11,637 nucleotides of DNA, taken from IMG/VR virus record IMGVR_UViG_2534681675_000022, one strand, 5' to 3'. This DNA is from a virus (Duplodnaviria; Heunggongvirae; Uroviricota; Caudoviricetes). The notes under the pieces are model-generated. The model made no database searches. It was not told where the DNA came from and saw nothing but the letters and a program-made list of their open reading frames with translations. Of this stretch, positions 4,193-11,637 are shown one piece after another. The first letter of the stretch is position 1; each line of letters begins with the position of its first letter. The translations under genes and the position numbers were made by a program.

Positions 4193-4492
4193 ATGAAACT
4201 TAAATATTCTGGCTTAACTGCCAGTGGCAACACTCACCCTAAATTTACGCGCGGTGATATTTACCGCGACCAGTACGGCGGCACGGTAATGATTAAGGGC
4301 GTGGCGGGACGGTGCGTAACTTACCGCCATGAAGGTTACGAATATGATTGCGTGATGCCTGTTTATCAGTTCCGGCGTGATTTTTCTCTGGTACAGACCG
4401 CGCCGCATAACGTGCCCACCAGCAACGCCAGGGCACGGGCAAACATCCAGAAGCTGAAAACCATGATTAACGGATTCAGGGGTAAAAAATGA
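4193..4492 (+). CDS. Hypothetical protein (99 aa), overlaps start of replication gene
   Basis: ATG 4193 with GGAGA upstream; its stop overlaps the ATG of the primase ORF (ATGA coupling). Confidence 0.55.
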   Translation: MKLKYSGLTASGNTHPKFTRGDIYRDQYGGTVMIKGVAGRCVTYRHEGYEYDCVMPVYQFRRDFSLVQTAPHNVPTSNARARANIQKLKTMINGFRGKK

Positions 4493-6237
4493 AACTGGCA
4501 CCGAACGTAAAAAAACAGCCACGCGGAATAAAACACAAAGACACAGAGGTAATTATCTTTGCGGGTAGTGATGCCTGGTCGCACGCGAAACAATGGCAGG
4601 AGCAGGATGGCCCCGCATCCGGCGATAATGTGCCGCCTGTGTGGCTTGGGCCAAAGCAGCTTGCCGAACTTGATGCGCTGAAAATTGTTCCGGATGGGAA
4701 AAAGCGCGTAAGGCTGTACCAGGCCGGAGAACTGGATTTAGTGGAGACCAAAAAGATTGGTCAGAAGCTGGCGGCGGCAGATATTCAGGACGCAAATTTT
4801 TACCACGAAGGAATGCACGTCCAGAAGTGTGAAAACTGGCGGCGCTATCTGAATGCTGAGCGTGAAAATATTGCCGCAGGGCTTACCATGCCGGAGCAGA
4901 AAAATACGCAACTGGCACAAATGGCAGACAGTGAGCGCGCACAGATGCTTGCTGGTCGATTTGATGGCGTTTGTGTGCATCCGGAAAGTGAAATCGTTCA
5001 CGTATGGCGCGGCGGGGTATGGTGTCCGGTCAGCACAATGGAACTTAGCCGCGAAATGGTGGCGATCTATTCAGAGCACAGGGCCACTTTCAGCAAACGC
5101 GTGATCAATAACGCCGTTGAAGCGTTAAAAGTTATTGCCGAACCAATGGGGGAGCCGTCCGGCGATTTGTTGCCGTTCGCCAATGGTGCGCTTGACCTGA
5201 AAACGGGGGAATTTTCCCCGTACACGCCGGAGAACTGGATCACCACGCACAACGGCATTGAGTACACGCCACCAGCACCTGGGGAGAACATCCGCGATAA
5301 CGCGCCAAACTTTCATAAATGGCTTGAGCACGCAGCCGGAAAAGACCCGCGCAAGATGATGCGTATATGTGCCGCGCTGTACATGATTATGGCGAACCGG
5401 TACGACTGGCAGATGTTTATTGAGGCCACCGGAGACGGCGGGAGCGGTAAAAGTACATTCACACACATAGCCAGCCTTCTGGCAGGGAAACAGAACACGG
5501 TAAGCGCTGAAATGACATCGCTTGATGATGCTGGTGGACGTGCGCAGGTTGTCGGGAGTCGTCTTATCGTCCTGGCAGACCAGCCGAAATATACAGGCGA
5601 AGGAACGGGCATCAAGAAAATCACGGGCGGCGACCCCGTGGAAATAAACCCGAAATATGAAAAGCGTTTCACGGCGGTAATCAGGGCGGTGGTGCTGGCG
5701 ACCAATAATAACCCGATGATATTCACCGAACGGGCCGGAGGTGTGGCACGTCGTCGCGTGATTTTCCGTTTCGACAATATTGTTAGTGAGGCCGAAAAAG
5801 ACAGGGAACTACCGGAAAAAATTGCGGCTGAAATCCCCGTTATTATCCGCCGCTTGCTGGCGAACTTTACCGACCCTGAAAAGGCGAGGGCTTTACTACT
5901 GGAACAGCGTGACGGTGATGAAGCACTGGCAATAAAGCAACAGACGGATCCGGTTATTGAGTTTTGCCAGTTCCTGAATTTTCTGGAGGAAGCGCGCGGC
6001 CTGATGATGGGTGGCGGTGGTGATTCAGTGAAGTACACGACCAGGAACAGCCTTTACCGCGTCTATCTGGCGTTTATGGCATACGCAGGCAGGAGCAAAC
6101 CGCTAAACGTGGCTGAGTTCAGCAAGGCCATGAAGCCAGCGGCGAAAGTTTACGGGCATGAATATATTACGCGAAAAGTTAAGGGAGTAACGCAGACCAA
6201 CGCAATTACAACAGACGATTGCGACGCGTTTTTATAA
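4489..6237 (+). CDS. Replication initiator: phage/plasmid primase-associated D5_N-type domain plus P-loop (SF3-helicase-like) NTPase
   Basis: 582-aa ORF. Walker A GDGGSGKST and a Walker B-like hydrophobic stretch RLIVLADQ; central region typical of the P4-family primase C-terminal/D5_N architecture; located directly upstream of an iteron array. Confidence 0.85.
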   Translation: MKLAPNVKKQPRGIKHKDTEVIIFAGSDAWSHAKQWQEQDGPASGDNVPPVWLGPKQLAELDALKIVPDGKKRVRLYQAGELDLVETKKIGQKLAAADIQDANFYHEGMHVQKCENWRRYLNAERENIAAGLTMPEQKNTQLAQMADSERAQMLAGRFDGVCVHPESEIVHVWRGGVWCPVSTMELSREMVAIYSEHRATFSKRVINNAVEALKVIAEPMGEPSGDLLPFANGALDLKTGEFSPYTPENWITTHNGIEYTPPAPGENIRDNAPNFHKWLEHAAGKDPRKMMRICAALYMIMANRYDWQMFIEATGDGGSGKSTFTHIASLLAGKQNTVSAEMTSLDDAGGRAQVVGSRLIVLADQPKYTGEGTGIKKITGGDPVEINPKYEKRFTAVIRAVVLATNNNPMIFTERAGGVARRRVIFRFDNIVSEAEKDRELPEKIAAEIPVIIRRLLANFTDPEKARALLLEQRDGDEALAIKQQTDPVIEFCQFLNFLEEARGLMMGGGGDSVKYTTRNSLYRVYLAFMAYAGRSKPLNVAEFSKAMKPAAKVYGHEYITRKVKGVTQTNAITTDDCDAFL

Positions 6238-6250
6238 TTTTTTGTAAAAG

Positions 6251-6477
6251 CCCTCTACCCCATCTACCTGAATGAAATAAACGCATATTATTCAACATGA
6301 TAAGTGGGTAGAGGGCCAGGTAGAAGGCTAATAAAAGCTCTCTACCTCTTCTACCTGATTTTATCAGTTTCAGATGGCAGGGTAGACGGCAGGTAGAGGA
6401 GCACCAAAAGCTATCTACCCGCTGAAAGCCGCGCCATTACTGACATGATGAGCATTCGGGTAGATGGGTAGAGGGGG
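6251..6477. repeat. Iteron array (candidate replication origin)
   Basis: About 11 copies of GGTAGA[GATC]GG in both orientations, arranged in pairs (CCCTCTACCCCATCTACC; GGGTAGAGGGCCAGGTAGAAGG; CTCTCTACCTCTTCTACC; GGGTAGACGGCAGGTAGAGG; CTATCTACCC; GGGTAGATGGGTAGAGGG) with AT-rich spacers, immediately 3' of the replication gene. Confidence 0.7.
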
Positions 6478-6520: not shown

Positions 6521-6835
6521 ATGCGCATACATCAAAATCACTTAACAAACATGCCAGCCGAAAACATGAATCAGGGGCGACAAATGACCAAAATTCGCAG
6601 AGACAGAACAGAGCCAAAATATAAAGCGTTAGACATGACTGAGCACACCTTAAAGGTGGCAATCAGAACGATAGACCGCCACACGCGGGAAGGATACGCG
6701 AAGGAACATCCCGAACTGATAAGCGCATTCATGACCACAGCGGCGGCAAACTTTGCCACGCTGACAGAACGGGAGATTGCCGAAGCGGAACAGGTAACAA
6801 CCATCAACGTTAAAACCGGAGAGGTGGAATCATGA
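6521..6835 (+). CDS. Hypothetical protein (104 aa)
   Basis: ATG 6521 preceded by GAGGGGGTG; its stop overlaps the SSB start. Confidence 0.5.
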   Translation: MRIHQNHLTNMPAENMNQGRQMTKIRRDRTEPKYKALDMTEHTLKVAIRTIDRHTREGYAKEHPELISAFMTTAAANFATLTEREIAEAEQVTTINVKTGEVES

Positions 6836-7242
6836 CAGCACAGATAGCCGCTTACGGGCGGCTGGTGGACGACCCGCAGGTAAAACAGACCAGCAAGGGC
6901 ACACCGATGACGCTGGCGCGTATGGCGGTCCCCCTTCCGTGCAGCCAGGCAGATGACGGAACGGCTACGTTATGGCTATCGGTGATGGCATTTGGTAAGC
7001 AGGCCGACTTCCTGGCTAAACATCAAAAAGGCGACGTTGCCAGCATATCTGGCGTGATGCAGATAAGCCAGTGGACCGGACTGAACGGGGAAACGCGGCA
7101 GGGTTATCAGGTTATTGCAGACAGCGTAATCAGTGCCCGTGCGGCACGTCCTGGCGGGAACAGACGCAAAACCACAGGCGCACAGGGTAATCAGCCACCA
7201 GCGGGAGACGATGACCCCTACGGTGATGATATTCCGTTCTGA
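6832..7242 (+). CDS. ssb: Single-stranded DNA-binding protein (OB fold) with acidic C-terminal tail
   Basis: 136-aa ORF. N-terminal GRLVDDPQVKQTSKG and the W...FGK...KG...G spacing fit the SSB OB fold; Gly/Gln/Pro-rich linker; C-terminal DDDPYGDDIPF is the canonical SSB tail motif. Confidence 0.75.
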   Translation: MTAQIAAYGRLVDDPQVKQTSKGTPMTLARMAVPLPCSQADDGTATLWLSVMAFGKQADFLAKHQKGDVASISGVMQISQWTGLNGETRQGYQVIADSVISARAARPGGNRRKTTGAQGNQPPAGDDDPYGDDIPF

Positions 7243-7479: not shown

Positions 7480-7686
7480 ATGGCAGAAGAGAAAAAAGGC
7501 GGTGTTTCGGTGTACATAAGCCCCGAAATCGTGGAGGTGCTCAAGCAGCGCCACAAAAAAAACTATGAGGCTGGCGTAGCGGCTGGACTGGATCCGCTGA
7601 TGACGCCGGAGCCGTCGATAGGTTCACTTGTGCGCTCTTATTTACTTGCGGCGCTTGGGATGCATAAAAATTATGGGGGTGAATAA
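7480..7686 (+). CDS. Hypothetical protein (68 aa), first gene of capsid operon
   Basis: ATG 7480 with AGAGGA upstream; its stop overlaps the ATG of the major capsid gene. Confidence 0.55.
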   Translation: MAEEKKGGVSVYISPEIVEVLKQRHKKNYEAGVAAGLDPLMTPEPSIGSLVRSYLLAALGMHKNYGGE

Positions 7687-8741
7687 TGGCAGGCAAAGCA
7701 ACGGCACTTAACACTAACCAGCTTTTTGCGTACCTGAATCGCGGGGATATTGCGGAATTTAAATTCAGTCCGCTGTTTACCACGCTGTTTTTCCCGAACG
7801 TGGCGACATTCAGCACCCAAAACATCATGCTGGATACCCTGGACATTGAAGAAGTCACCATGTCGGCGTTTTGTTCGCCTATGGTTGGCAGCCAGGTACA
7901 GCGCGATAAAGGATACGAAACCAGCACGATTAAACCTGGCTACATGAAGCCAAAGCACGAAATCGATCCAACAAAAACCATCATGCGCATGGCTGGAGAA
8001 GATCCGGCACAGCTTAACGACCCTACCTACCGACGTATGCGCCTGATTACTGGCAACATGCGCCGCCAGGTAAACGCCATTAAAGCGCGCGTGGAATGGC
8101 TGGCGGTGAATGCGATAACGACCGGAAAAAACATTATTGAGGGCGAAGGCATAGAACGCTATGAAATAGACTGGAAAATACCGGAAAACTGCATCATAGA
8201 GCAGGCCAAGGGTAAAAAATGGTCCGAGCAGGATAAAGAGATGCACGACCCAATCTATGACATCGAGCTTTATGCAGATCAGGCTGGTTGCCCCGCAAAC
8301 GTCATGATTATGGGCGCTGAGGTATGGCGCACGTTACGCAGCTTTAAAAAATTCCGTGAGCTGTACGATCTTTCCCGTGGTTCAGAATCCGCCGCAGAAC
8401 TGGCCTGTAAAAACCTGGGCGAAGTGGTGAGCTTTAAAGGCTATCTGGGCGATATTGCCCTTATCGTCTATTCCGGCAAATACGCTGACAGCGACGGCAC
8501 CGAAAAATATTTCCTTGAGCCTGATTTACTGGTCCTGGGTAACACCAACAATAAAGGCCTGGTGGCCTATGGTGCGATTATGGATCAGGAAGCGGTCAGA
8601 ACGGGCGCAACGCAAAACATGTACTACCCGAAAAACTGGATTGAGGACGGCGATCCGGCGATTGAGTACGTGCAGACACACAGCGCACCGCAGCCGGTAC
8701 CGGCAGATATTCGCAAATTTGTTACCGTCAAAATTGGTTAA
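7686..8741 (+). CDS. Major capsid protein, phage lambda gpE family
   Basis: 351-aa ORF colinear over its whole length with lambda gpE (341 aa) as I recall it: EFKFSPLF vs KFKFDPLF; PGYMKPKHEI vs PGYVKPKHEV; EDPAQLNDPTYRRMR vs EDPQNLADPAYRRRR; SRGSESAAELACKNLGEVVSFKGYLGDIALIVYSGKY vs RRGSNSELETAVKDLGKAVSYKGMYGDVAIVVYSGQY; YPKNWIEDGDPAIEY vs YPKNWVTTGDPAREF. Confidence 0.9.
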   Translation: MAGKATALNTNQLFAYLNRGDIAEFKFSPLFTTLFFPNVATFSTQNIMLDTLDIEEVTMSAFCSPMVGSQVQRDKGYETSTIKPGYMKPKHEIDPTKTIMRMAGEDPAQLNDPTYRRMRLITGNMRRQVNAIKARVEWLAVNAITTGKNIIEGEGIERYEIDWKIPENCIIEQAKGKKWSEQDKEMHDPIYDIELYADQAGCPANVMIMGAEVWRTLRSFKKFRELYDLSRGSESAAELACKNLGEVVSFKGYLGDIALIVYSGKYADSDGTEKYFLEPDLLVLGNTNNKGLVAYGAIMDQEAVRTGATQNMYYPKNWIEDGDPAIEYVQTHSAPQPVPADIRKFVTVKIG

Positions 8742-8752
8742 CGGGGGATTCT

Positions 8753-9088
8753 ATGGACACTCCATACATTGAGTTATTCGCAGGCAGTCAGCAGGTCGCC
8801 ACGACGCTGGTACATTTTGCCGCTGATGCTGGCGTTATTCAGGAATTTACCCCGCTGATGCTGGCGGACAATGGCGAGTTTAAGCCGTGGGATGGTCAGG
8901 AATCTGGCAAGGCTGTTTATCTGACTTCGTACCCCGTGGACACGTCGACGCAGAAATCAGCACAGTGTTACAAGACGGGGATATTTAATATCGCTGCCGT
9001 AAACTGGCCTGAGAGCGCCGACACTGACGCGAAAAAATGCGCTGCCTTTGCGGGGGCTGGCGTATCCGTTCAGCCGCTGGCCCGATAA
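8753..9088 (+). CDS. Head decoration protein, phage lambda gpD family
   Basis: 111-aa ORF. TPLMLADNGEFKPWDG, YKTGIF and WPESADTDAKKCAAFAGAGVSV match lambda gpD ([46 protein letters not shown]). GGGGGA Shine-Dalgarno upstream. Confidence 0.85.
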   Translation: MDTPYIELFAGSQQVATTLVHFAADAGVIQEFTPLMLADNGEFKPWDGQESGKAVYLTSYPVDTSTQKSAQCYKTGIFNIAAVNWPESADTDAKKCAAFAGAGVSVQPLAR

Positions 9089-9097
9089 GCAGGGGGA

Positions 9098-9514
9098 ATG
9101 ATGGCAACGAATGAAAGCATCATGACGCTACCGCTGGCGAGTAAATTTAAAGCCGAAGCGCGGGCAATGGCTGACAGAGGGTTATCAACCTACGAGGGCA
9201 TATATCAACTTAACAAACTGGAAGAGCAGGACAAGCCGCGCGCTGATTCGATTATGGCGCTTGATGAATCTGGCGACTATCAGCCGCTGTTACGTGCAAT
9301 GGCAAACGTGCCTTGTATCGATGTTGGTACGGCTAAAAGCATCCTTAGCATGACCATAGAGCAGGAACGTCCGAAGGTTGCGCCGGAGCTTACCGCAGCC
9401 TTTGAAAACTTTATGGACACGCACAGCCCGCAAGCCGTATCAGCTGGCATGGCATACGATGGCAGAAACCCGGGCGATGACGGCGACATCGATCGCATAC
9501 TGAAAACCATCTGA
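9098..9514 (+). CDS. Hypothetical protein (138 aa) downstream of the capsid genes
   Basis: ATG 9098 or 9101 after AGGGGG; last gene before the terminator and cos. Sits where lambda has FI, but I could not support sequence similarity to FI. Confidence 0.55.
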   Translation: MMATNESIMTLPLASKFKAEARAMADRGLSTYEGIYQLNKLEEQDKPRADSIMALDESGDYQPLLRAMANVPCIDVGTAKSILSMTIEQERPKVAPELTAAFENFMDTHSPQAVSAGMAYDGRNPGDDGDIDRILKTI

Positions 9515-9542: not shown

Positions 9543-9610
9543 ACGGGTCCTTTCCGGCATATGGACCCGTTACGGGGCGGCGACCTCGCGCGTTTTCGCT
9601 ATTTATGAGC
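9543..9610 (+). other. Lambda-type cos site A: cosQ-side flank, cosN (12-nt cohesive end GGGCGGCGACCT at 9575-9586) and first ~24 bp of the cosB side
   Basis: ACGGGTCCTTTCCGG...GTTACG GGGCGGCGACCT CGCGCGTTTTCGCTATTTATGA is almost base-for-base the lambda right-end/left-end junction as I recall it; similarity ends after TTTATGA. Confidence 0.75.
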
Positions 9611-9719
9611 CTTTTCAGGGGGGTGGTGGTGGTTTTGTTGTTTGCTCTATCTTTATGAATGAAAAGGGAAAGATGCAAACAATACACCAACCTGAAGCAG
9701 TAATTAAGTTGGTGTATTA

Positions 9720-10262
9720 ATGAAATCGCACCTGATGAACAAAAAAAACATGGCGAAAAGCTGCCGTGTAAGTGCGACAGCGTTCGACAAGTGGGGAGTG
9801 ACTCCCGTTGAACGTAAAGGCCGTGAGGCGTTTTATGATGTTGCCAGCGTGATAGACAATAGGGTTAACAATGCAATTAGCCAGCTTACAAACGACAAAG
9901 GCGATATTGATGATGATGAACTCTTACGAGTCAGGATCAGATTACTGACAGCACAGGCGGAGGCGCAGGAACTTAAAAACGAGCGCGATCGCGGTGACGT
10001 GATTGATACTGAGTTTTGCCTGTACGCGCTTTCAAAGCTGGCGAGTCAGATTTCATCAATCATGGACAGCCTCCCGCTTACTATGCAAAGGAGCTTCCCA
10101 CAGATTACCCCCGCCATGCTGGACAGGCTTAAAAGGGAAGTGGTTAAAGCCTGTAATGCCAGTGCCAGAGTTGCCGACAACCTCCCACAGATACTGGCTG
10201 ATTACTTGAAAGAAACAACCGGAAACGTACCGGAAAAGTTGCTACAGAAGAAAGGCAAGTAA
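9720..10262 (+). CDS. Terminase small subunit, lambda Nu1 family
   Basis: 180-aa ORF. C-terminal two-thirds align with lambda Nu1: LLTAQAEAQELKNERD vs LTRAQADAQELKNARD; FCLYALSKLASQISSIMDSLPLTMQRSFPQ vs FCTFVLSRIAGEIASILDGLPLSVQRRFPE; LKREVVKACN vs LKRDIIKAMN. N-terminal wHTH region is recognisable (NKK..., YDVASVI vs YDSAAVI) but divergent in the recognition-helix region. Start could be 9720, 9735 or 9750. Confidence 0.85.
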   Translation: MKSHLMNKKNMAKSCRVSATAFDKWGVTPVERKGREAFYDVASVIDNRVNNAISQLTNDKGDIDDDELLRVRIRLLTAQAEAQELKNERDRGDVIDTEFCLYALSKLASQISSIMDSLPLTMQRSFPQITPAMLDRLKREVVKACNASARVADNLPQILADYLKETTGNVPEKLLQKKGK

Positions 10263-10288
10263 CAGAAGCGCAATTATTGAACAAAAAT

Positions 10289-10490
10289 GAGAAAGGATCT
10301 GATAATGGCATTTTCTGGCTAAAATGCCTCGTGTCAGATCCTTTCTTTTTTTAATATTTTCATTGTTAAACAGTCTGTTACAGAGAAGAAGAACGGATCT
10401 GACTTTTGCCGGAAAATTTTCATAAACAGATAAAAACCGCGAGGTCGCCGCCCCGTAACGGGCCATAATTCCAGGAAGGACCCGACGACA
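10289..10490 (-). other. Lambda-type cos site B in inverted orientation: cosQ-side flank, cosN (10442-10453) and a full cosB-like region with three R-like repeats
   Basis: Minus strand reads CGGGTCCTTCCTGGAATTATGGCCCGTTACG GGGCGGCGACCT CGCGGTTTTTATCTGTTTATGAAAATTTTCCGG ...CCGTTCTTCTTC..., tracking lambda cos for more than 100 bp. Core GGATCTGA/TCAGATCC at 10294-10301, 10333-10340 and 10395-10402 sits where lambda has CGTTTCC/GGAAACG, in the same orientation pattern. The inner 13-bp inverted repeat (10289-10301 / 10333-10345) plus T-run also looks like a terminator for terS. Confidence 0.75.
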
Positions 10491-10517
10491 CCAGGCTATC
10501 AGAACGATGGGGGCACA

Positions 10518-10799
10518 ATGACAGAAGCCGAACTACTGCGATTAATCCGCCGCGTTACCGGAATCAGCCAGCAGCATGACGAACAGGGCACGCAACCGGA
10601 CAGCGTGACCGCTGAAAATTATGCGCGTGTTGTTGCTGAGGTGATGCGCCGTGATGGTATTGAGCTTAACGGCGTGGATATGCGCAACATACGAACCAGA
10701 GTCCTTGAGTTGCTGGCATACCGTCGCCGCGTGGAGATGTATCGGGAGAAGGAGAAAATCACGTACCACTGGAAGAAGCCGGAACGGTTGCGGCGGTAA
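10518..10799 (+). CDS. Hypothetical protein (93 aa) just outside cos B
   Basis: ATG 10518 after GATGGGGG; Arg-rich helical-looking protein; no recognisable family. Confidence 0.4.
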   Translation: MTEAELLRLIRRVTGISQQHDEQGTQPDSVTAENYARVVAEVMRRDGIELNGVDMRNIRTRVLELLAYRRRVEMYREKEKITYHWKKPERLRR

Positions 10800-10882
10800 C
10801 TCACTGAGATTAAAGCAAAGCTCAAAATTGCGCTGGCTGAATGATCATTATGATTACTTATGTTTACGCAGATGATTAAGGC
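10789..10882. repeat. Direct repeat, copy 1 (~90 bp), overlapping the 3' end of the 93-aa ORF
   Basis: GGCGGTAACT...TTAAAGCAAAGC[TG]CAAAATTGCGCTGGCTGAAT[GA]ATCATTATGATTAC...GCAGATGATTAAGG; copy 1 has an extra TTATGTT relative to copy 2. Confidence 0.6.
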
Positions 10883-10922
10883 CTAAACCGTTGATTATTC
10901 CACAATCCCCCATTGGGGGAAG

Positions 10923-11005
10923 CTGGCGGTAACTGGTTGAACTTAAAGCAAAGCGCAAAATTGCGCTGGCTGAATAATCATTATGATTACGCAGATGATT
11001 AAGGA
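10923..11005. repeat. Direct repeat, copy 2 (~83 bp)
   Basis: Same unit as 10789-10882. Contains the AGCGCAA aa TTGCGCT hairpin and the ATCATTATGAT palindrome. Confidence 0.6.
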
Positions 11006-11022
11006 ATGACCGAAGGCGGAAA

Positions 11023-11322
11023 TTCGCCTGTGGTTGATGGGGGAGTTGCAGATCTGCAACTCGACCATGAAATTACGGAAACTACCCGTAGTTTGGGTAG
11101 TAAGAGCAACACCCAGATTTTGGGGCTTACTCGTGATACCCAAATTTGGGGTATCGGCGGCAACCATAACGACTTTCGTTACGGTTGATGCTTTTACCCC
11201 ATTGAGGGAAAGGTATTACGATAATCATAACACCTACCGAACAGGTAAAGCCCACCAGCCTGATTAACTGTTAACCGGAAAAAAATTCCGGTAGGGTTCC
11301 CGATATGGGAATCCCCATATCG
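11023..11322. other. Palindrome-dense non-coding region near the right end of the island (candidate att arm / regulatory or structured RNA region)
   Basis: Consecutive perfect or near-perfect palindromes: AGGCGGAAATTCGCCT; GTTGCAGATCTGCAAC (16 bp); AAACTACCCGTAGTTT; GATACCCAAATTTGGGGTATC; TTAACTGTTAA; CCGGAAAAAAATTCCGG; CGATATGGGAATCCCCATATCG. No convincing ORF. Confidence 0.4.
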
Positions 11323-11484
11323 ACAGCAACGCCCCCTTAAAATTACCCGCCTTTATATTTCTTGTGCCTATTTGTTCCACGTTGTTTCATACAGTGCGCC
11401 GAACGGTGTAGTCACTGGTGTAGTTATTTTGAGTTTTTTTGCACTTCGGGCTTAATTGAAAATATAATTAAATCAGTATGTTAT

Positions 11485-11637
11485 TCAAAATAAGTTATAT
11501 ATAACAGCAATAAATAATGCGAGAATAAACGGCACGAGGATCTCGGCGGCAAAACGGATACCGCAGAGAATAATGACCAGCATTCCCAACATAATGACGA
11601 TTTTTAGACCATTGAGCGTGATGATCGGCTTTGCCAT
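11485..11637 (-). CDS. Short ORF (50 aa): N-terminal fragment resembling the AI-2 exporter TqsA/YdgG (AI-2E family) membrane protein, apparently truncated at the island junction
   Basis: Minus-strand translation from the ATG at 11637: [46 protein letters not shown], then YNLF and stop. This matches the TqsA N-terminus as I recall it for ~46 residues; the downstream sequence becomes AT-rich and unrelated. Confidence 0.5.

Follow-up and report, generated by a model that had tools for sequence, protein, structure and literature searches.

A terminal gene shared by enterobacterial phage-inducible chromosomal islands and the box-hairpin array at its stop codon

Phage-inducible chromosomal islands (PICIs) from Escherichia coli are satellites that have been studied in depth and that mobilize virulence and defence genes, and characterization has covered their integrase, AlpA, primase, Rpp, and capsid modules. 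EcCICFT073 is the prototype Gram-negative PICI. It has two functional cosN sites and encodes homologs of a capsid protein (c1499) and a decoration protein (c1500) (PMC6092414). Here, we examine one uncharacterized gene that is found alike in EcCICFT073-type, EcCIEDL933-type, and Citrobacter-type islands. The copy under study is an open reading frame (ORF) of 93 codons in an 11,637-nucleotide stretch of the IMG/VR virus record IMGVR_UViG_2534681675_000022, and we call that whole stretch the window. The element that it holds is a PICI of the EcCICFT073 type, located within the E. coli gene tqsA (ydgG). The ORF belongs to a known satellite family, in which it is already annotated as a "hypothetical protein," and is not a new system. 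Two points about it are worth following: its universality across PICI classes, and the satellite-specific array of integration host factor (IHF) boxes and palindromes at its stop codon.

A coding gene at the int-distal end of the islands

The ORF and its putative translation signal are located as follows.

10518-10799, + strand: PHROG 1561-family ORF (93 amino acids [aa]), the last gene of the island; ATG at 10518, TAA at 10797-10799
10509-10513, + strand: GGGGG purine-rich run, a candidate ribosome-binding site read from the sequence, 4 nt 5' of the ATG

The predicted product carries 16 Arg and 4 Lys residues against 15 acidic residues (pI 9.97, 11.2 kDa) and is annotated in RefSeq as WP_000133435.1, a hypothetical protein. 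Homologs in other contexts have GAGG or GGAGG at a similar distance from the start, and the GGGGG run may play that part here. The length of the ORF is unremarkable by itself, as the ORF list of the window runs to 88 entries of 40 aa or more; its coding status follows from conservation, purifying selection, and in-frame indels, not from length. Residues 1 to 93 match positions 1 to 93 of the 93-position profile of PHROG 1561, a family of unknown function (E, 1.9e-56; 189 bits). A protein search recovered 1025 homologous clusters, each built at 90% identity, and the best 120 of them are nearly all exactly 93 aa long. Nine homologs from different islands, down to 42% aa identity, were compared by the Nei-Gojobori method. 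In 36/36 pairs dN/dS lay between 0.18 and 0.48, with dS reaching 0.3 to 1.4 and dN only 0.03 to 0.5, and third-position changes were in excess. All of the indels are in frame (+1 codon, -2 codons, and a gap of 7 to 8 codons in the Citrobacter-type copy), and the reading frame is kept at 44 to 46% identity in the Citrobacter homologs. These comparisons indicate that 10518-10799 is a genuine protein-coding gene under purifying selection.

The alternative is that the ORF is noncoding, as a preliminary description of the sequence had left open, and lies by chance over conserved cis-acting DNA near a cos site. Many ORFs in the window are of similar length, and the last roughly 10 nt of this one resemble the G-rich tail of the repeated unit described below. 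Against this stand the dN/dS ratio below 0.5 in every pair, the indels in multiples of three, the frame kept in the distant Citrobacter copies and in every related island examined, the more than 1000 homologous clusters, and conservation in islands that have no cos nearby. The chance explanation is effectively refuted. A simple scan for terminators and promoters gave nothing convincing for the ORF, and an Rfam search in and after it returned no match (best, manA RNA at E 0.42).

The gene is common in E. coli and narrowly distributed beyond it. A blastn search of 5426 complete E. coli genomes placed it at 1944 positions, spread over 1564 of them (about 29%); the listed records annotate a "hypothetical protein" there. 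For comparison, the lambda-type capsid gene occurs at 1080 places and terL of the capsid-forming PICIs (cf-PICIs) at 584, each below the count for the ORF. Among 50,697 phage genomes the family had one weak match, at E 1e-3. Its hosts are Escherichia, Shigella, and Citrobacter, plus one truncated 60-aa match in Salmonella; a scan of species-representative genomes, which relies on exact peptide patterns, found only Shigella flexneri.

In every locus examined, the homolog is last on the int-distal side and oriented like the morphogenesis and packaging genes; this holds for the island of E. coli Nissle 1917, the cf-PICIs, other lambda-type islands, and the Citrobacter-type islands. Its upstream neighbor is RppA, a Nu1-like small terminase subunit (TerS), a P27-type TerS plus the large subunit (TerL), or a TerS-like gene, although in locus L018 a 153-aa gene intervenes. 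Seven loci (including L003, L005, L006, L015, L016, and L017) have only 6 to 15 bp between the terminase-type gene and the homolog. In EcCICFT073 (locus L009), no further island gene follows the ortholog (L009 18374-18655, corresponding to NC_004431 1388373-1388654; WP_000133413.1; 84% aa identity), which lies between cos2 and phoQ and downstream of RppA and by position is probably c1504. The EcCIEDL933-type cf-PICIs encode an HK97-type capsid protein, protease, portal, HNH protein, P27-type TerS, and TerL, and there the ortholog (WP_000133425.1) starts 6 to 14 bp after terL, with no lambda cos at that place. One lambda-type island has the ortholog 12 bp after terS with no second cos between them. 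Identity to the window protein is 82 to 87% in these cf-PICIs and this lambda-type island and 42 to 46% in the Citrobacter-type islands, which carry ProQ, PerC, tail-like genes, and a TerS-like gene.

The Citrobacter-type islands (L011, L012, and L018, from Citrobacter sp. S-77 and metagenome contigs) form a third island type. They contain DUF4222, a primase or RepA helicase, ProQ/FinO, PerC, and the TerS-like gene, followed by the ORF homolog; they also have genes matching baseplate-hub and tape-measure/transglycosylase profiles and no capsid genes. For EcCIEDL933 itself, the cf-PICI preprint reports that mutation of "hypothetical gene 1792" lowered transfer and gives 1786 as the capsid gene. 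Gene 1792 is probably not the ORF ortholog; counting from 1786 would put it at a 60-aa gene between HNH and terS, and the same count would place the ortholog at 1795.

In the window, the ATG lies 34 nt outside the cosQ element of the cos site that we call cos B, and transcription runs away from cos, so the Arg-rich ORF does sit beside cosQ/cosN as the preliminary description had it. That description took the proximity as a clue to function. The ORF is next to a lambda cos only in one subfamily, however, and follows terL or terS in islands without an adjacent lambda cos; therefore, the adjacency is subfamily specific and is not a functional clue. It derives from the cos1-terS/rpp-cos2 cassette that the lambda-type subfamily carries and is uninformative on what the protein does.

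The protein is likewise independent of the modules around it. Between the window and the Nissle island, the integrases are 24% identical and the ORF products 85% identical. Between the window and E. coli TUM20902, TerS is 88% identical and the ORF product 65%. The ORFs of CFT073 and Nissle are nearly identical (dN, 0.039), and their integrases are unrelated. By these comparisons the ORF protein does not covary with integrase, att site, or TerS. Judged from the loci examined, the ORF is a lineage-restricted core gene of these satellites that occupies the terminal position whatever the packaging system.

A box-hairpin array that begins at the stop codon

The last 8 nt of the ORF fall within a direct repeat, 10792-10857, that is 89% identical to 10925-10990, an overlap that the preliminary description had correctly noted. 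Alignment of the sequence 3' of the stop codon in 12 islands revealed the underlying unit, which is 46 to 48 nt long, and the direct repeat proved to consist of units 1 and 3 of an array. Each unit has, in order, a box TAAC-N3-(T/C)TGAT(A/T)TTYYCG, a spacer of 2 to 5 nt, a variable palindrome with an A/T-rich loop, and a G-rich tail. The window contains the following.

10797-10843, + strand: box-hairpin unit 1, opening with the ORF stop codon as first triplet; matched by covariance model R1 at 40.6 bits, E 2.2e-9
10884-10929, + strand: box-hairpin unit 2; box TAAACCGTTGATT, palindrome TCCCCC-att-GGGGGA
10930-10976, + strand: box-hairpin unit 3; palindrome AGCGCA-aaat-TGCGCT
10900-11325: noncoding DNA rich in hairpins, lying between ORF and attR

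With a covariance model based on 27 units, we obtained 40 strong matches distributed over 12 loci, and three further loci added 9. There are 1 to 7 units per island, all on the + strand and within about 450 nt 3' of the ORF stop codon, and the first unit starts at the TAA of the ORF in 13/13 distinct islands, Citrobacter included. Arrays lie just 3' of the ORF homolog in L002 to L006 and L009 to L018. The model found no strong match in 90 kb of other CFT073 DNA, and a search of the 50,697 phages for the array found none. A two-unit probe found matches in 977 E. coli genomes, at 1321 places that carry no annotation, and the papers searched contained no description of the array. The array is a PICI-specific repeated element that occurs only at this end of such islands.

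Between 10800 and 11330 there are 9 perfect hairpins (stem of at least 6 bp) versus 0.77 +/- 0.80 in 300 dinucleotide shuffles (maximum, 4), and most homologous islands show the same enrichment. The two arms of the palindrome covary: 71.6% of cells are paired versus 54.7% in shuffles, none of 500 shuffles reached the observed value, and slid controls gave at most 50.6%. The stems themselves are diverse, with 26 different ones among 36 distinct units. The box matches the IHF consensus WATCAANNNNTTR as its reverse complement YAANNNNTTGATW, with a flanking A/T tract, and is a predicted IHF site; the invariant unit positions T1A2A3 and T9G10A11 coincide with the specified positions of that consensus. 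The match is perfect in unit 2 (10884-10896) and has 1 or 2 mismatches in units 1 and 3. Perfect matches cluster after the ORF, three to five at a time, in L002, L003, L004, L009, and L011 (3/7 in L009 and 5/5 in L011), where about 0.6 per 11.6 kb is expected by chance.

Several known elements were weighed as identities for the unit (integron attC sites, ops/RfaH, CRISPR-like repeats, type III antitoxin repeats, and a partition centromere) and set aside on misfit of conserved positions or gene content. A minus-strand match to the IHF consensus is also present near the island end in several loci. Within the hairpin-rich stretch, an ORF of 60 aa at 11006-11188 lies over three hairpins; 52 aa of it correspond to RefSeq WP_001364204.1, and L005 and L006 retain part of it (67 to 88% over 39 to 43 aa), with no family matched.

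Predicted structure and possible roles

The search for relatives by homology and structure, which the preliminary description had proposed, gave a mixed outcome: a full-length family assignment (PHROG 1561) and no relative of known function by sequence or fold. Matches in the PDB by sequence or profile were limited to DARPin/ankyrin proteins at E 0.07 to 2, a weak similarity over residues 17 to 58 that we regard as spurious; the multi-repeat proteins P0137, P0154, and P0157 probably reflect the same ankyrin effect. A likeness to Fis noticed by eye (TQ-P-DSV...NY...LNG-D) reached only 9.8% in hhalign and was dropped. We built two AlphaFold2 (AF2) models, one from close homologs (mean predicted local distance difference test [pLDDT] score, 63.6) and one with the Citrobacter homologs added (72.1). 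In the second model, residues 31 to 70 are at pLDDT 82 to 90. The predicted protein consists of helices at residues 3 to 14, 28 to 45, and 52 to 79, with a disordered linker at 15 to 27 and no beta wing. The third helix is Arg rich and the C-terminal tail basic, and the family keeps a C-terminal motif, Y-x-W-K-K-P-E-R-L-R-R, almost without change.

With moderate confidence overall, we favor the explanation that the ORF is a genuine terminal core gene of PICIs, coupled to the unit array, whose product may be a late, nucleic-acid-linked accessory. How such a protein might work can be proposed only tentatively: it may act late, at the junction of the late operon and attP/int, on a partner that stays constant. 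Most islands keep the protein at 80 to 100% identity even where terminase, capsid module, integrase, and att site have been exchanged, so that the partner is probably constant. Candidates for it would be the DNA or RNA of the island's right end, which carries the conserved box, and host factors such as IHF; a packaging protein tied to one helper, or one particular integrase, would be less likely. The product would then be a late-expressed nucleic-acid-binding accessory that organizes or insulates the island end, through either an IHF-bent nucleoprotein array or control of the 3' end of the late transcript. A broader and more doubtful proposal is that the gene and the IHF-box/palindrome array form one undescribed cis/trans module kept by every enterobacterial PICI of this lineage, whatever the helper machinery. 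Such a module could be an IHF-assisted nucleoprotein or RNA device that governs read-through into attP/int, excision and circle handling, or concatemer processing. Alternatively, the variable accessory (defence) region could use it as a conserved landing pad.

Several observations weigh against the favored explanation. The 93-aa protein has no match in Pfam (E of 0.1 or less), NCBIfam, or PADLOC. Foldseek searches of the AF2 models against the PDB and BFVD assigned no fold (best E values 1.5 and 0.4, TM scores below 0.55). No relative by sequence or fold points to nucleic acid binding or to another activity, and the basic charge no more than suggests such binding. Mismatches in the palindromes number 20 G.T versus 15 A.C, counts too close for assigning the palindromes to one strand or for telling action as DNA from action as RNA. 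The window and Shigella share a first unit and have different protein variants, and the window and L015 show the reverse. Protein variants and first-unit types therefore assort independently, which makes sequence-specific recognition of the hairpins by the protein unlikely; the same independence indicates that the stop codon is also a recombination junction. The coupling of protein and units could mean only that the units are end-of-operon elements and the ORF the last gene. Finally, when the EcCICFT073 genes after ori were cloned, lambda interference was seen for c1503 only (PMC6739421). The ortholog, if it was among those clones, does not block lambda; c1504 is named neither in that text nor in the other papers searched.

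The preliminary description had suggested a packaging or excision accessory protein, for example an Xis-like factor. A generic packaging or excision role has gene position as its positive support. A packaging accessory would work with the terminase or its DNA substrate in initiation, concatemer handling, or end protection. In the loci examined, an Rpp, TerS, or TerL gene on the same strand immediately precedes the ORF (with the one intervening gene in L018), often at the tight spacing given above; the ORF lies within the late morphogenesis block, and in the window it is beside cos B. However, the upstream terminase systems are mutually unrelated while the ORF protein stays 80 to 87% identical, it does not covary with TerS, and it is absent from true phages that use the same terminases. 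The packaging-module mutants in the cf-PICI preprint would, by the count from 1786, span 1786 to 1794 and so leave out the ortholog. The known redirection factor of the family, Rpp, is a different gene that lies between the cos sites, and PDB searches by phmmer and by profile gave no Rpp match for the ORF at E of 10 or less. Small-terminase profiles of Pfam and PHROG also failed to match it; the Nu1 homolog is the neighboring 180-aa gene. We therefore consider a packaging role unlikely.

As a recombination directionality factor (RDF), the protein would bend the P-arm together with IHF and favor excision. It is small, with a pI of about 10; its gene is the last before attR in all loci, so that ORF and int flank attP in the excised circle; and the IHF-consensus boxes begin at its stop codon. 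Int-distal RDFs exist, such as TorI of KplE1 and Hef of the Yersinia high-pathogenicity island. Yet none of 13 family members searched against Pfam matched an excisionase family, hhalign scored the ORF against lambda Xis at 0.1%, and the predicted fold is all helical, without a winged helix. The protein does not covary with Int or the att site, the units lie 500 to 680 bp from the core and are common to islands with unrelated integrases, and an AlpA/Vis-family protein is already encoded beside int. Overexpression of AlpA alone sets off int-dependent excision of EcCICFT073 (PMC6092414), which also counts against the ORF as an RDF. We give this role little credence. Scarcely better placed is a host- or helper-directed small regulator ("moron") like PerC and RgdR of these islands, whose target would be gene expression of host or helper and not the DNA of the island itself. 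The islands do carry genes for further small basic regulators, RgdR and PerC, that have host phenotypes (PMC3378721), and the narrow host range would fit a host-specific partner. But morons are usually variable, whereas the ORF has a fixed position in every island type, inside the late operon and directly after a terminase gene, and no DNA-binding or regulator domain was detected in it. If the ORF is essential, it would represent a new core PICI function; if it is dispensable, the array would still be an unexplained conserved feature of the right end.

The surrounding island and its likeness to known systems

The remaining features of the window are as follows.

1-1218, + strand: P4-type integrase
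1593-1781, + strand: AlpA (PF05930, 5e-18)
4193-4492, + strand: DUF4222/RgdR-type protein, 99 aa, with an RGD motif at residues 20-22
4489-6237, + strand: D5_N primase
6832-7242, + strand: SSB
7686-8741, + strand: lambda-E-like major capsid protein
8753-9088, + strand: gpD-like decoration protein
9098-9514, + strand: scaffold-like protein
9544-9619, + strand: cos A, inverted partner of cos B; cosN at 9575-9586
9720-10262, + strand: Nu1-family TerS, 180 aa (Pfam Phage_Nu1, 2.3e-23; PHROG 57)
10263-10484, - strand: cos B, inverted lambda type
10263-10441, - strand: lambda-like cosB side of cos B, between terS and cosN; holds a large palindrome, 10284-10352
10442-10453, - strand: GGGCGGCGACCT, the cosN of cos B, an exact match to the lambda cohesive end
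10477-10483, - strand: cosQ heptamer GGGTCCT of cos B, from alignment with the lambda right end (NC_001416)
10800-11484: noncoding DNA, about 690 bp
11485-11637, - strand: 5' fragment of tqsA

The window shows the traits by which PICIs are recognized: an integrase, an AlpA activator, a primase/replicase with adjacent repeats, a packaging hijack module, no lysis or tail genes, and a size of about 10 to 15 kb. Its gene set comprises Int, AlpA, the D5_N primase, SSB, the lambda-E-like capsid protein, the gpD-like decoration protein, the Nu1-like TerS, and two cos sites. It is syntenic with EcCICFT073 (Int 91%, AlpA 95%, primase 90%, and capsid protein 96% identical), and a right end identical to that of the window is present in E. 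coli RM10466, the genome in which RefSeq annotates the ORF as WP_000133435.1.

The cos arms, 9544-9619 and 10409-10484, are 76 nt each, 79% complementary, and inverted around terS, and a lambda-like cosB is kept at site B and not at site A. This inverted pair matches the published cos1/cos2 arrangement of EcCICFT073. The slot between the sites holds the 180-aa Nu1-family TerS in the window and RppA (144 aa; L009 17660-18094) in EcCICFT073; comparison of these two proteins showed no similarity. TerS of the window is 99% identical to that of the Nissle 1917 island.

Other features of the window stand apart from the ORF. In a leftward-transcribed region, 2218-2292 and 2903-2977 are direct copies of 75 nt that lie 685 bp apart and are 80% identical; they appear to reflect a duplicated two-gene module of a small hypothetical protein and a YlcI/YnfO-type protein, following the RM10466 annotation. 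Just 3' of the primase gene, 27-nt direct repeats at 6245-6271 and 6332-6358 (89% identical) are candidate origin iterons. The DUF4222 protein encoded at 4193-4492 belongs to the RgdR family (ECs1581/C1493). RgdR is a small regulator from OI-51, published by Flockhart et al. in 2012, that activates type III secretion of the locus of enterocyte effacement and represses motility (PMC3378721); an identification of the ORF itself with RgdR was rejected, since RgdR is this DUF4222 gene. Near the right end, 11159-11446 is shared (75 to 82%) only with L003, L009, and L010 among the islands aligned there, and it is probably the integrase-specific arm of attP/attR. Of the three, L003 and L009 were placed at the roxA-phoQ site, and the integrase comparison covers L009 alone (91%). 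A related island with TIR-domain and abortive-infection genes occupies 1-10600 of L005 (E. coli TUM20902, NZ_AP025662). Its insertion point is within a lambdoid prophage's major capsid gene, and it looks helper embedded, resembling the helper-embedded PICIs that have been described (PMC10111431).

The closest counterparts of the ORF are the last gene of EcCICFT073 and the post-terL gene of the EcCIEDL933-type islands, with 84 to 87% aa identity, equal length, the last position before attR, and the same box-hairpin unit at the stop codon. They differ from the window copy in upstream neighbor (RppA in CFT073 and TerL in the cf-PICIs, versus the Nu1-like TerS) and in integration, as the islands with these orthologs occupy the roxA-phoQ interval and the window element occupies tqsA. 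The Rpp proteins (RppA/B/C; PDB 6HLK and 6HN7) are likewise small satellite proteins encoded next to lambda-type cos sites. Rpp has no sequence similarity to the ORF, whereas CFT073 RppA, used as a control, matches RppC (PDB 6HLK) at 5e-31. The rpp gene lies between cos1 and cos2 and is missing from cf-PICIs; the ORF lies outside the cos pair and is present in them. The N-terminal DNA-binding domain of Rpp is a winged helix resembling the one in TerS (PMC9026076); three helices are predicted for the ORF product instead.

More distant likenesses concern the array as much as the protein. Known RDFs (lambda Xis, P4 Vis/AlpA, TorI, and Hef) are like the ORF product in size, charge, att-adjacent position, and the presence of IHF-type sites nearby, but the ORF differs in lacking homology, a winged helix, and covariation with integrase, and in having an AlpA-family protein already present in its island. 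The lambda N/nut system also pairs a small Arg-rich protein with units of a linear box and a short hairpin; this is a resemblance only. The Arg-rich segment of the ORF product is C terminal and predicted to be helical, versus the N-terminal arginine-rich motif of N, to which no similarity was detected. The unit box is not boxA (CGCTCTTA) but fits the IHF consensus, the unit loops vary, and the units lie downstream of the ORF at the operon end. The RIP/RIB (BIME-1) elements of E. coli consist of an IHF site flanked by REP palindromes at operon 3' ends. The units resemble them in combining an IHF box with palindromes, in standing at the end of a transcription unit, and in occurring in several copies, and they differ in being confined to the right end of a satellite, with short palindromes of many sequences.

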